Of a stretch of DNA of 64,000 nt, positions 36,688-40,287 are shown in pieces. The position numbers and the translations under genes were made by a program. The stretch's first letter is position 1. Each line of letters begins with the position of its first letter. Below the pieces are notes generated by a model that made no database searches, had not been told where the DNA came from, and saw nothing but the letters and a program-made list of their open reading frames with translations. The DNA is from a virus (lineage: Duplodnaviria > Caudoviricetes): IMG/VR virus record IMGVR_UViG_2737471647_000001; one strand, written 5' to 3'.

Positions 36688-38064
36688 ATGACCCTGAGCT
36701 TTGCCCCGGACGCGATTGAGACCTGGCCGCTGGCCAAGCTCCAGCCTTATGCCAAGAACGCAAAGGCGCATGGCGCGGACCAGGTTGCGAAGATCGCCGC
36801 CAGCATGGCCGAGTTCGGTTGGACGGTGCCGTGCCTCGTTGCTGACGACGGCGAGCTGATCGCGGGCCATGGCCGGGTCCTGGCCGCCACGCAGCTCGGG
36901 CTAACCGAGGCACCGGTGATCGTGCTGGGTCACCTGACCGAGGCGCAGCGCCGGGCCTACCGGATCGCGGACAACAAGCTGACCGAACTGGGCACCTGGG
37001 ACGAGGCGCTGCTGTCTGCGGAACTGAACGACCTGCTGGCGGAGGACTACGATCTGTCTCTGGTCGGTTTTTCCGATGGTGAGTTGGACAAGCTGCTGGC
37101 CTATGTGCCGGAGGAGGATGGCGACGAAGGTGGTGCCGGGGGCTCTGTGCCGCCGGTGACCATTCCCGAGCCGCCGCGCAATCCGGCATCGCAAACCGGC
37201 GACCTGTGGATCCTCGGCGATCACCGGTTGCTCTGCGGCGACAGCACCAGCGCTGCCGATGTACGCCGCCTGATGAATGGCGAGCGGGCGATCCTGTTCG
37301 CGACCGATCCGCCTTACCTCGTCGACTACGACGGCTCGAACCATCCGACACGGAACAAGGATTGGTCGGCGTCTTATGGCACCACCTGGGACGACAGCAG
37401 CCAAGGTGCGGAACTGTACGATGGCTTCATCGCCGCTGCAGTGGCTGAGGCAATCGCCGAGAACGCGGCCTGGTATTGCTGGCACGCCTCGCGTCGTCAG
37501 GCGATGCTGGAAGCATGCTGGGAGAAGGCTGGGGCATTCGTTCACCAGCAGATCATCTGGGTGAAAGACCGCGGTGTCCTGACCCGGTCGCACTATCTCT
37601 GGAAGCACGAGCCCTGTTTCATGGGCTGGCGTCGACCCAACCGCCCGCCAAAGGTGGCCGAGGAAACGCTGTCATCGACATGGGCGCTGCCGAGCTTTGC
37701 CAAGGACGAACGGCCCGATCATCCGACGCCGAAACCGCTCGACGCGTTCGGCATTCCGATGCGGCAGCACGTGGCGCGCGGCGGTCTCTGCTACGAGCCT
37801 TTCTGCGGCTCCGGCTCGCAGATCATGGCCGGTGAAGCCTATGGTCGCCGCGTCTTCGCGATGGAAATCAGCCCGGCCTACATCGACGTTGCCGTCGAAC
37901 GCTGGCAGGCCGACACGGGGCGCGAGGTGATCCTGGACGGTGATGGCCGGACCTTCGCTCAGGTGCGGACCGAGCGGCTGGGCGACAATGCTGACGTCTC
38001 CGCCGATGTCCCGGCCGCAAACGGCGAACCCGAGTCCGCCCGCGACCGCAAATCCGCAGCCTGA
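36688..38064 (+). CDS. ParB-N-domain-fused DNA methyltransferase (N6A/N4C, beta class)
   Basis: LQPYAKNAKAH...LIAGHGR...YRIADNKL ParB-like domain; HRLLCGDS, TDPPY, HPTPKP, YEPFCGSGS. Confidence 0.92.
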   Translation: MTLSFAPDAIETWPLAKLQPYAKNAKAHGADQVAKIAASMAEFGWTVPCLVADDGELIAGHGRVLAATQLGLTEAPVIVLGHLTEAQRRAYRIADNKLTELGTWDEALLSAELNDLLAEDYDLSLVGFSDGELDKLLAYVPEEDGDEGGAGGSVPPVTIPEPPRNPASQTGDLWILGDHRLLCGDSTSAADVRRLMNGERAILFATDPPYLVDYDGSNHPTRNKDWSASYGTTWDDSSQGAELYDGFIAAAVAEAIAENAAWYCWHASRRQAMLEACWEKAGAFVHQQIIWVKDRGVLTRSHYLWKHEPCFMGWRRPNRPPKVAEETLSSTWALPSFAKDERPDHPTPKPLDAFGIPMRQHVARGGLCYEPFCGSGSQIMAGEAYGRRVFAMEISPAYIDVAVERWQADTGREVILDGDGRTFAQVRTERLGDNADVSADVPAANGEPESARDRKSAA

Positions 38065-38068
38065 GGCA

Positions 38069-39250
38069 ATGCATGACCTGGCTCTACCTTCCTCCGGGTG
38101 CACTTCCGGAACTGAAGACGCATGCCTGTTTGGCCTCTCGCTCTGCTCCGGCGCAGGCGGGCTCGACCTCGGGCTCACCATTGCCATCCCCGGATATCGA
38201 ACTGTGGGCCATGTCGAACGGGAAACCTACGCCGCGGCCATCCTCGTGGCACGGATGGAAGAGACGGCCCTGGATCCAGCGCCTGTCTGGGACGATGTTG
38301 CCAGCTTCGACGGCCGCCCGTGGCGCGGTGCGGTGGACATCGTTACTGCGGGATATCCGTGCCAGCCGTTCTCTGTCGCGGGCAAGCGCCGGGGTGCCGA
38401 CGACCCGCGCCACCTTTGGCCGCATGTCGCGCGGATCATCAACGAGGTCGAGCCGCCCTTCGTCTTCCTCGAGAATGTCGCCCATCATCTCCGCCTCGGC
38501 TTCCCCGAAGTCGCCAGCGGACTGGTCGGCATGGGCTACCGCCTTGCGGCGGGTCTCTTTACAGCGGCGGAAGTCGGTGCGCCGCACAAACGCGAGCGGC
38601 TGTTCATCCTCGCCATCCGCGAGGGCTCCGAACTGGCCGACCCCTCGCGCCTGCTCTGGCACCCGGTCGAGTGGCGGCAACCGGACGGAGATGTTGCGGC
38701 TATGGCCGACGCCGAGGGCAAGCGCGAACGAGAACCGGCAGACGAAACTAACGCCCTCGCAAGAAGCGGGCAAGCATGGGATGAACCTGGCGACGAGCGC
38801 CGCGATGTGGCCGACGCCGCAGACCGACAGCTTCCGGAGCCGGGGCGGAGACCGGAAACACGAGAAGGGTCTGGACGGTATGGCGCGGGACTTGCCGACG
38901 CCGATGGCGAACGATGGGTGCAAGCCGAGCGCGGGCAATCGCAAGACGGCCGATCTGACCCATGCCAGCCGCATGTGGATGACGCCGACGGCGCGGGATC
39001 ACAAGGATGGGGCGACGACACTGGCGAACACGCCGGTCAACGGCCTTCTTGGCCGCCAGGTCCTGGTGACGCCGATGGCTGGGAGCAATACCTCCGATGT
39101 GCGCCGGACCTTGAACCCGCTGTTTGTCGAGGCGCTGATGGGCTGGCCCACAGGGTGGACCGGCTTCGCCTCTGTGGCAACGGCGTGGTCCCCTTGGTTG
39201 CGGCGCATGCGCTGCGAACTCTCGCGGCAGAACTGCTGGCCGCCGGATGA
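38069..39250 (+). CDS. C5 cytosine methyltransferase, alpha polypeptide (motifs I-VIII and X; no motif IX)
   Basis: LSLCSGAGG (I), AGYPCQPFS (IV), FLENV (VI), HKRERLF (VIII), RLCGNGVVP (X); ATG at 38069. Confidence 0.9.
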   Translation: MHDLALPSSGCTSGTEDACLFGLSLCSGAGGLDLGLTIAIPGYRTVGHVERETYAAAILVARMEETALDPAPVWDDVASFDGRPWRGAVDIVTAGYPCQPFSVAGKRRGADDPRHLWPHVARIINEVEPPFVFLENVAHHLRLGFPEVASGLVGMGYRLAAGLFTAAEVGAPHKRERLFILAIREGSELADPSRLLWHPVEWRQPDGDVAAMADAEGKREREPADETNALARSGQAWDEPGDERRDVADAADRQLPEPGRRPETREGSGRYGAGLADADGERWVQAERGQSQDGRSDPCQPHVDDADGAGSQGWGDDTGEHAGQRPSWPPGPGDADGWEQYLRCAPDLEPAVCRGADGLAHRVDRLRLCGNGVVPLVAAHALRTLAAELLAAG

Positions 39251-39263
39251 GGCGGCGACATGA
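38073..39263 (+). CDS. Overlapping +1-frame polypeptide: putative beta subunit of the C5 MTase (WPTP repeats plus motif IX)
   Basis: 396-aa ORF; GAGG SD 6 nt upstream; WPTP/LPTP/WMTP repeats; LNPLFVEALMGWPTGWT; its stop overlaps the ATG of the next gene (39260). Confidence 0.72.
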   Translation: MTWLYLPPGALPELKTHACLASRSAPAQAGSTSGSPLPSPDIELWAMSNGKPTPRPSSWHGWKRRPWIQRLSGTMLPASTAARGAVRWTSLLRDIRASRSLSRASAGVPTTRATFGRMSRGSSTRSSRPSSSSRMSPIISASASPKSPADWSAWATALRRVSLQRRKSVRRTNASGCSSSPSARAPNWPTPRACSGTRSSGGNRTEMLRLWPTPRASANENRQTKLTPSQEAGKHGMNLATSAAMWPTPQTDSFRSRGGDRKHEKGLDGMARDLPTPMANDGCKPSAGNRKTADLTHASRMWMTPTARDHKDGATTLANTPVNGLLGRQVLVTPMAGSNTSDVRRTLNPLFVEALMGWPTGWTGFASVATAWSPWLRRMRCELSRQNCWPPDEAAT

Positions 39264-39475
39264 AGCAATCGCGCCTCATGTCGCTGGCCGAGGCCATCGC
39301 CAACGTATTTGTCGGCTACGGCGTCGCGGTCGTCACGCAGATCCTGATCTTCCCGATCTTCGGCCTGCACACGACGCTGGCGCAGAACCTGAAGATGGGC
39401 GCGATCTTCACGGTGGTCAGCATTGCGCGGTCCTTCGCCCTGCGGCGGGTGTTCGAGGCGATCAGGGTAAGATAA
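39260..39475 (+). CDS. Small phage membrane protein
   Basis: Two hydrophobic helices; MKQSRLMSLAEAIANVFVGYGVAV. Confidence 0.75.
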   Translation: MKQSRLMSLAEAIANVFVGYGVAVVTQILIFPIFGLHTTLAQNLKMGAIFTVVSIARSFALRRVFEAIRVR

Positions 39476-39555: not shown

Positions 39556-40287
39556 ATGTTCTCAGATCGGCTTCTGGCAGCTCTCGGCGCATGGCAAAAC
39601 GGATGGCGCGAGGACCGCACCCGCCGCATACCAATTACCGAAGAGCTACTGGAGGCAATTTCGGAGCAGCGTCTGCCGGAACGGTTTGTCACATGCACTG
39701 AAATTTGTTTTCGGAAACGCTTCTTGGTACCTAACAACCAACAAAACGGCGGGGACTTAGGCCCTCTTTTTCTCAATGGGAACATCGACGAGGGCGTCGC
39801 GTCTTGGACTACCGACCCCAAGTTCGCACAGGAATTCAAAGACCCGCTCCGAGATGGCACGTTCTCAGCGGTATTTGCTCACCGTCCAAACGCGGACGAG
39901 GTGGTTTTGAATGTGCCCGCGCTCTGGTCAGACCCGGCCTTTCGGGCAAGAGTCGCAGAGTTCGAAGAAGGCAATGGCTTGAACGCTAAGGCGCTGACCT
40001 ATTTCAGATTTCGGCAGAGTGAAGTCATATTGACTGCAACGCTCAGGTACGACGAGGTGCATGCTGTCTGTGGAAGAAGCAGTCCTTTTGAGGTTCTCTG
40101 CGAGCTTCAGGGGCTTACTACGGACGCAGAGCGAGATTCCTATTGGAAGGAGTTGGTCGCTGCGAACAAGTTTCCTGAGGAGCCCTGTTGGATTGCCGGA
40201 CCAAGAGTAAAGAATGTGCTCGAGCGGACGAAGGTTAAGTTCCTGAACCAATTCGGGGACGTGATAGACAAGGTAATTGACCGCTGA
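39556..40287 (+). CDS. Moron; candidate ADP-ribosyltransferase (R-S-E clade)
   Basis: AAGGAG SD; lower GC than the flanks; CFRK, ASWTTDPKFA, RQSEVIL in ART order. Confidence 0.6.
   Translation: MFSDRLLAALGAWQNGWREDRTRRIPITEELLEAISEQRLPERFVTCTEICFRKRFLVPNNQQNGGDLGPLFLNGNIDEGVASWTTDPKFAQEFKDPLRDGTFSAVFAHRPNADEVVLNVPALWSDPAFRARVAEFEEGNGLNAKALTYFRFRQSEVILTATLRYDEVHAVCGRSSPFEVLCELQGLTTDAERDSYWKELVAANKFPEEPCWIAGPRVKNVLERTKVKFLNQFGDVIDKVIDR

Follow-up and report, generated by a model that had tools for sequence, protein, structure and literature searches.

Two completely overlapping same-strand reading frames in a prophage methyltransferase gene, and their possible role as two chains of one DNA cytosine-5 methyltransferase

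Introduction

In the monomeric DNA cytosine-5 (C5) methyltransferases a small domain, consisting of the variable region and motif IX, is inserted between motifs VIII and X, as in the structure of M.HhaI (PMC3404938). Enzymes of this class that are divided over two polypeptides have also been described. M.EcoHK31I of Escherichia coli (recognition sequence YGGCCR; Lee, Kam and Shaw 1995) is, in those parts of the later accounts that deal with it, a two-chain C5 methyltransferase that needs both of its chains: alpha carries motifs I-VIII, what is predicted to be a target-recognition domain (TRD), as well as motif X, and beta, which is read in another frame inside the alpha gene, carries motif IX and has an N-terminal part that mediates the association (PMC2836561, PMC3404938). 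M.AquI (CYCGRG) has, according to the section on it in PMC3404938, a larger chain that holds motifs I-VIII together with some of the variable region, and a smaller chain with the rest of that region and motifs IX and X. Here we analyse a locus in a 64,000-nucleotide (nt) stretch of DNA from a virus of the Caudoviricetes (IMG/VR record IMGVR_UViG_2737471647_000001), which as a whole is called the window, where two open reading frames (ORFs) on the same strand, frame A and frame B, overlap from end to end and may encode the alpha and beta chains of one C5 methyltransferase. An original prediction, made from the letters of the sequence alone, had suggested this and had named M.EcoHK31I as the precedent, and the choice was the right one, the second chain of that enzyme also lying in an alternative frame.

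Long same-strand overlapping (overprinted) genes are described from viruses, where two proteins are made from one stretch of nucleic acid and the constraint on them is asymmetric (PMC8227390). Full-text searches of one literature library found no description of the layout of the phage family treated here. As far as we know, long same-strand overlaps are considered to be very rare in the genomes of bacteria and phages, and annotation pipelines discard them.

Results

The two frames were predicted to be about 395 amino acids (aa) each, and they are 393 and 396 aa, with starts 4 nt apart within the heptanucleotide ATGCATG, stops 13 nt apart and an overlap of 1.18 kb (Table 1). On the sequences compared here, the decisive evidence that both are open for a reason is comparative. 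A genome scan gave 431 species genomes with a relative. Of the best 80 loci among these, which have 85-93% nt identity and come from several alphaproteobacterial orders, 75 keep both frames open over the whole length. The other five are L007, L030 and L054, where one frame is truncated, and L001 and L011, which fall outside the start-pattern filter. A distant set of 14 loci, with B proteins that are about 30-55% identical to that of the window, has both frames open in 13, which together with the close set makes 88 of 94. Distant loci with the layout include those of Synechococcus phage Yong-M2-251 and Komagataeibacter phage phiKX1, two plasmids, and loci with a GC content of 54-58%, the locus in the window having 66-67%. 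At one distant locus (L092) the frames are 626 and 573 codons long and overlap by up to about 1.7 kb. That both frames should stay open and conserved in homologues was the check that the original prediction had proposed, and the result speaks for it.

For the window itself, the probability of avoiding stops was estimated from a codon count by hand, assuming independence. In the stretch where frame B is selected, T is the last letter of 19 B codons, and AA, AG or GA are the first two letters of 42 out of 187, and since the two kinds are never adjacent, frame A gets no stop; its chance of escaping one over this stretch is P ~0.008. The corresponding chance for frame B to be open over the stretch where frame A is selected (the first 189 A codons) is P ~0.08.

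The annotation of these loci is uneven. Gene callers were expected to discard one of the frames, and pipelines do normally keep one, at NCBI mostly frame A and elsewhere frame B. Yong-M2-251 (L085, OM868082.1) is annotated with frame A only, and in phiKX1 (L086, LC644975.1) neither frame is annotated in full, just the 3' part of frame B being marked while frame A (548 aa) is left blank. In a Sphingomonas plasmid (L094, NZ_CP032828.1) frame B is a hypothetical gene, and in a Roseicitreum plasmid (L095, NZ_CP061501.1) a partial frame B is called a DNA methyltransferase.

Which frame is selected where could be followed by the entropy of each column, by codon phase, in 76 aligned sequences. Variation falls on the third position of frame A over nt 1-540 of the gene and on the third position of frame B from about 560 to 950; it is low in all three phases from about 950 to 1080, and from 1080 onwards it is again found at the third position of frame A. 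A BLASTP comparison of the window with L089 gives a similar picture, the first 186 codons being 64% identical in A and 35% in B, while in the remainder A can be aligned just over its last 64 residues (59%) and B over 195 residues (33%). Near the 3' end, a stretch of 200 nt holds a conserved island of A, then one of B and then another of A, and along the gene as a whole the conserved segments, as seen in the alignments, alternate A, B, A, B, A, so that a single chain with all the conserved parts would need at least four frameshifts. The claim that the conserved parts of a C5 methyltransferase are shared out between the frames in a complementary way is borne out by this codon-phase variation. 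The motif IX-like segment of frame B does stand just before the motif X of frame A, as was predicted, and to this order should be added an island of frame A between the repeats of frame B and the IX-like segment.

Within the first zone, frame B is mostly a shadow of frame A, with constraint at specific sites (a pattern M-x-WLY-hydrophobic-P, Gly50 and Leu71). These were examined in a DNA alignment of the 14 loci over the first 336 nt. The nearly invariant TGGCTCTAC reads WLY in B and forces GCT and rare xTA codons upon A, where the residue at the xTA codons varies among L, V and I. At nt 214-216 of the gene, the A codon for proline is the rare CCT in all 12 loci that have a proline there, and GTT in the other two; the adjacent four-fold sites vary, and Leu71 of B is kept by way of CTG, CTA, CTT and TTG. 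Position 201 is an invariant C, and the A residue encoded there may be A, S, T, H, L or G. Such frozen third positions of A are, in this alignment, signatures of selection at the protein level in B upstream of its recognition region, and a B-specific constraint in the N-terminal half implies that B would be translated from its 5' ATG.

In line with this, a double start of the form NTGNATG behind a single Shine-Dalgarno (SD) sequence is present in eight of the 14 loci, from several clades. The start of frame B is usually ATG, and that of frame A is ATG, GTG or TTG. In the window a GAGG lies 2 nt upstream of the A start and 6 nt upstream of the B start, and it had been argued that this spacing is better for frame B. 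This holds for the clade of the window, but in other clades the SD favours the start of A, and the favoured start thus differs between clades.

Frame A is the catalytic chain. It matches the Pfam family PF00145 (E 4.8e-33) only over residues 23-190, that is motifs I-VIII, with the S-adenosylmethionine (AdoMet) binding loop of motif I, the catalytic cysteine in the PCQ of motif IV, the ENV of motif VI and motif VIII in one chain. A sequence search of the PDB finds M.HhaI (E 1.4e-13), and the alignments with M.HhaI and M.HaeIII end at residue 190 as that of Pfam does; with Dcm of E. coli the hhalign probability is 97.9. The alignment with phrog_363 is longer, covering residues 23-385 and therefore the motif X-like GNGVVP, which is invariant across the 14 loci while third positions of A vary. 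The motifs I, IV, VI, VIII and X that had been predicted for one frame are accordingly all found in A. In dozens of alphaproteobacteria, frame A of the relatives bears the name DNA cytosine methyltransferase at NCBI.

An AlphaFold (AF2) model of frame A, made from an alignment of 24 sequences, has a predicted local distance difference test score (pLDDT) of 75-96 for residues 21-197, below 30 for 198-328, about 57 for 331-347 and 79-91 for 371-393, and by Foldseek it resembles M.HaeIII and M.HhaI (E ~1e-12 over about 170 columns). In the model, frame A folds as the large domain of a C5 methyltransferase with a C-terminal helix, and a disordered insert of about 130 residues stands exactly where frame B is conserved. 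Residues 198-328 have no similarity between clades and vary at the first codon position of A. A TRD and a motif IX are not found alongside the catalytic motifs in frame A; the conserved sequence at that place is in frame B. Judged by conservation and the model, the counterpart of the TRD in alpha is unconstrained and predicted to be disordered, and the whole conserved variable region lies in beta.

Frame B has the five predicted WPTP-type repeats, WPTP at 38634, 38703 and 38808, LPTP at 38892 and WMTP at 38976. The DNA repeat TGGCCGACGCCG is exact at 38703 and 38808 and has a copy with one mismatch at 38892. Further downstream comes the motif IX-like segment with the conserved pattern LNP.FVE.LMGWP.GWT. 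Both elements that were foreseen for a repeat-built second subunit are thus in place, but the description was too narrow, for beta appears to hold the entire conserved variable region, and the resemblance to motif IX is not significant (see below). Frame B has no match in Pfam, NCBIfam or the PDB (a sequence search of the latter gave nothing at E<=1), and a Pfam match is absent in all of the 78 diverse members of its family that were examined. It does match phrog_1008 (E 6e-19), which PHROGs names DNA methyltransferase, a name given by annotation and not by test. In a library of 1.84 billion proteins, clustered at 50% identity, it matches 6644 clusters at E<=1e-3, of which 2443 reach E<=1e-10, and many of the cluster matches extend from about residue 1 to 390. 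The AF2 model of frame B, from an alignment of 78 sequences, has confident local elements in the IX-like helix (residues 349-356, pLDDT 92) and in residues 41-70 and 148-167.

Table 1. Features of the two-frame locus, in positions of the 64,000-nt window
Feature	Position	Strand	Remarks
Stop of the upstream gene (TGA 38062-38064) and GAGG Shine-Dalgarno sequence (38063-38066)	38062..38066	+	Overlapping; read directly
Frame A ORF (alpha)	38069..39250	+	ATG 38069 to TGA 39248-39250, 393 aa; large domain, predicted disordered insert, motif X
Frame B ORF (beta)	38073..39263	+	ATG 38073 to TGA 39261-39263, 396 aa; +1 relative to A
Zone 1, frame A selected (motifs I, IV, VI, VIII)	38069..38625	+	Variation peak at the third position of A
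Zone 2, frame B selected (WPTP-type repeats)	38626..39049	+	Peak at the third position of B; A merely kept open, pLDDT <30
Frame A island WPPGPGD..GW..YL..PDLEP	39050..39118	+	Conserved in 12 distant loci; synonymous changes at the third position of A alter B
Frame B motif IX-like segment LNPLFVEALMGWPTGWT	39111..39161	+	B positions 1-2 invariant and position 3 variable in 14 loci; AF2 helix with pLDDT 92
Frame A C-terminus DRLRLCGNGVVP and helix	39158..39250	+	Motif X (GNGVVP) at 39176-39193; A positions 1-2 invariant, position 3 variable; pLDDT 79-91
ATGA, stop of frame B overlapping the start of the DUF7220 gene	39260..39263	+	DUF7220 gene at 39260-39475

The stop of frame B is coupled through ATGA to the next gene, as predicted, a DUF7220 gene whose ATG it overlaps. 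The upstream gene (36688-38064, + strand) encodes an N6/N4 amino-methyltransferase (PF01555) that is joined with a ParB-N-like domain, and it has its stop inside TGAGG, 4 nt upstream of the ATG of frame A. The two-frame gene is accompanied by this combination of methyltransferases also at L081 and L092. The surroundings are those of a prophage, with genes for a helicase, an AAA_25 protein, terminase gpA, a lambda-type portal, a ClpP-like protease and capsid E, and since no restriction enzyme could be recognised near the two-frame gene in this neighbourhood, the methyltransferase would be an orphan. An ORF of 243 aa (39556-40287, + strand) without a Pfam match sits between the methyltransferase module and the terminase, in a dip in GC content (55-59%, against about 65% around it), and may be a moron or accessory gene.

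Some of the related loci have features of their own. Just downstream of the two-frame gene in L092 (3672-4079) there is a gene for Vsr, the very-short-patch repair endonuclease (PF03852), which would fit the production of 5-methylcytosine by this family of two-frame methyltransferases. In the metagenomic L088 (1-1602), frame A has a large extra segment, of an HNH-endonuclease-like appearance, between the stop of B (958) and motif X, and because of it frame A must be read far past the end of B to reach motif X.

Discussion

Judged from the sequences, the observation is real, and the architecture is conserved and under selection, with stops selected against in the shadow region of each frame and with selection on single residues of B where it overlies the catalytic domain of A. 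We think it probable, with some reservation, that the locus makes an alpha/beta enzyme from a double start, in which alpha supplies the large domain and beta the recognition region with a motif IX-like segment. This would be a prophage-borne orphan C5 methyltransferase that is encoded as two completely overlapping genes on the same strand. Ribosomes that come from the upstream ParB-methyltransferase gene, or load at the single SD, would start at either ATG of ATGCATG. Frame A would then give alpha, with the AdoMet-binding and catalytic large domain (motifs I-VIII), an acidic disordered spacer of about 130 residues, a PPGP..W helix that is short and conserved, and a motif X helix, with which the large domain is complete. 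From frame B would come beta, which begins with a short, conserved M-x-WLY-hydrophobic-P stretch, continues with about 180 basic residues that are for the most part under no constraint, and then has the target-recognition region with the WPTP repeats and the IX-like helix. The two chains would associate and rebuild the architecture of large and small domain that a monomeric C5 methyltransferase has, and the pattern of frames does follow the domain limits of the monomer, with the large domain in A and the equivalent of the small domain in B. We infer that both frames are translated, that their products associate and that beta is needed for methylation.

Several observations weigh against such a two-chain enzyme. 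Nearly unconstrained ballast would take up about 180 residues in beta and 130 in alpha, and the identity of 35% in the N-terminal half of B is, by a rough estimate, about what selection on A only would leave. Frame B on its own folds poorly in AF2 (mean pLDDT 60, predicted template modelling score 0.27), and its model has no structural match (VIA-align, Z<=2.3 at most), being too uncertain to inform. The best local hhalign match between frame B, as an alignment of nine sequences, and Dcm pairs residues 344-359 with Dcm 399-414, which is motif IX, but with a non-significant E of 0.4. Continuity of alpha is not universal either, for L093 has a frame A that is interrupted after motif VIII and before the PPGP island, and a B that is whole. 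In this locus (566-2108) frame A stops after motif VIII at 1147, and an ORF at 1706-2086 resumes with the PPGP island and motif X; frame B carries an extra insertion of lower GC content. It may be a decaying copy or a variant in three pieces. As a candidate for alpha and beta in separate genes without overlap (P0054/L093) it was rejected, being the same overlapping layout with an interrupted frame A. Finally, 14 A-to-B chimeras with varied junctions are found among the 120 homologues listed, and these are probably indel errors or mutants. The metagenomic homologues P0002-P0005, P0012, P0026, P0027 and P0085 are single ORFs with the start of A followed by B, each changing frame at another point, and P0085 has 10 member sequences.

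The selected segments come in the canonical order of the motifs, A (I-VIII), B (variable region and IX-like segment) and A (X), and beta alone has no confident fold, which would both suit a single polypeptide made by programmed ribosomal frameshifting, from A to B after motif VIII and from B back to A before motif X, that is a canonical monomer with motifs I-VIII, TRD, IX and X. We nevertheless consider this quite unlikely. Frameshifting gives no reason for openness outside the segments used, yet both frames are open in nearly all of the loci compared, and two full-length chains are favoured because the frames are free of stops outside their conserved parts, because the extreme N-terminus of B is conserved and has its own ATG start, and because the conserved A island (PPGP..W..LEP) lies between the repeats and the IX-like segment of B, which raises the number of shifts to at least four. 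Reading by eye, we saw at neither junction in the window a slip site of the stop, rare-codon or heptamer kind, and the junction sequences differ between clades. Matches to the B region that bear PF00145 were considered as natural in-frame monomers and rejected; they are A-to-B chimeras with differing junctions, and among the matches listed none returns to frame A for motif X.

Another possibility is that alpha alone is a working methyltransferase of a short type and that B is a separate, overprinted protein with a role in DNA binding, regulation or counter-defence. The match of frame A to phrog_363 from motif I to motif X and its annotation at NCBI would agree with this, as would the lack of relatives of frame B in Pfam, NCBIfam and the PDB and its non-significant similarity to motif IX. 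Such an alpha would, however, have no recognisable TRD, being unconstrained and predicted to be disordered between motif VIII and the PPGP island, and B is conserved exactly in this gap and ends in the segment that, within Dcm, aligns best with motif IX. The conserved parts of A and B are complementary and not duplicated, and PHROGs calls the B family a DNA methyltransferase, although by annotation only, so we regard an independent B as unlikely. We hold it to be highly improbable that one frame results from the high GC content and is not translated, or that the locus is a pseudogene with a frameshift or a mistake of assembly. Long alternative ORFs are common at 66-67% GC, and the openness of B over zone 1 in the window alone is not very improbable, but assemblies made independently for at least 90 species share the layout, isolate genomes and cultured phages have it too, and it also occurs where the GC content is 54-58%; the variation tracks the third codon positions of whichever frame has the motifs, and residues specific to B are conserved. 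The few broken copies (L007, L030, L054 and L093) have the look of decay, and a very recent clonal spread is excluded by protein identities of 33-64% between clades. We thus rejected the high-GC artefact on the openness of the close and distant loci, and the pseudogene or assembly frameshift on the occurrence of the layout in isolates and cultured phages.

The interest of the two-frame gene rests on the length, age and breadth of its dual coding. We lean slightly towards an ancient and family-wide dual coding, complete and on the same strand, in phages of bacteria, in genes of about 1.1-1.9 kb with a double start and with a large-domain and a small-domain product. Provided that both frames are translated, few of the conserved dual-coding regions known to us in bacteria or their phages would be longer, and this would be one where the two products build one enzyme. 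Each frame would encode a domain and a spacer by turns. A very large unannotated "dark" family would on this view consist of methyltransferase genes read in the +1 frame and joined to their real recognition domain, and the annotated domain content of many Dcm-like methyltransferases of phages would have to be corrected. A natural heterodimeric C5 methyltransferase with its recognition module on a separate chain would also bear on how phages change their methylation specificity, and on the engineering of split methyltransferases as has been done with M.EcoHK31I.

In sequence and predicted fold, residues 21-197 of frame A are like M.HhaI, M.HaeIII and Dcm of E. coli, all of PF00145, with PCQ, ENV and a motif X of the GN type, and the difference is that the small domain with the TRD and motif IX is missing from this chain and apparently supplied from the +1 frame. 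With M.AquI, as far as the source describes it, the locus shares a division into two chains that falls within or close to the variable region, but there motifs IX and X are both on the second chain, and here motif X is in frame A with the catalytic chain, the IX-like segment is in B, and the genes overlap completely. Overprinted virus genes resemble it in the long overlap and in the asymmetric constraint on the two frames, but here both products seem to belong to a single enzyme, and the constraint alternates between the frames so that neither is an unconstrained newcomer throughout. The closest likeness is with M.EcoHK31I, compared here by its published description, where the second chain also comes from an alternative frame of the methyltransferase gene; in our alignments this takes the form of conserved open frames with frame-specific selection. 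The beta of M.EcoHK31I is nested within alpha, whereas here the overlap runs end to end, and B starts 4 nt after A and ends 13 nt after it; its alpha keeps a predicted TRD, whereas here the conserved variable region is in beta and its counterpart in alpha is unconstrained; and it is part of a restriction-modification system, whereas the two-frame gene is a prophage orphan.

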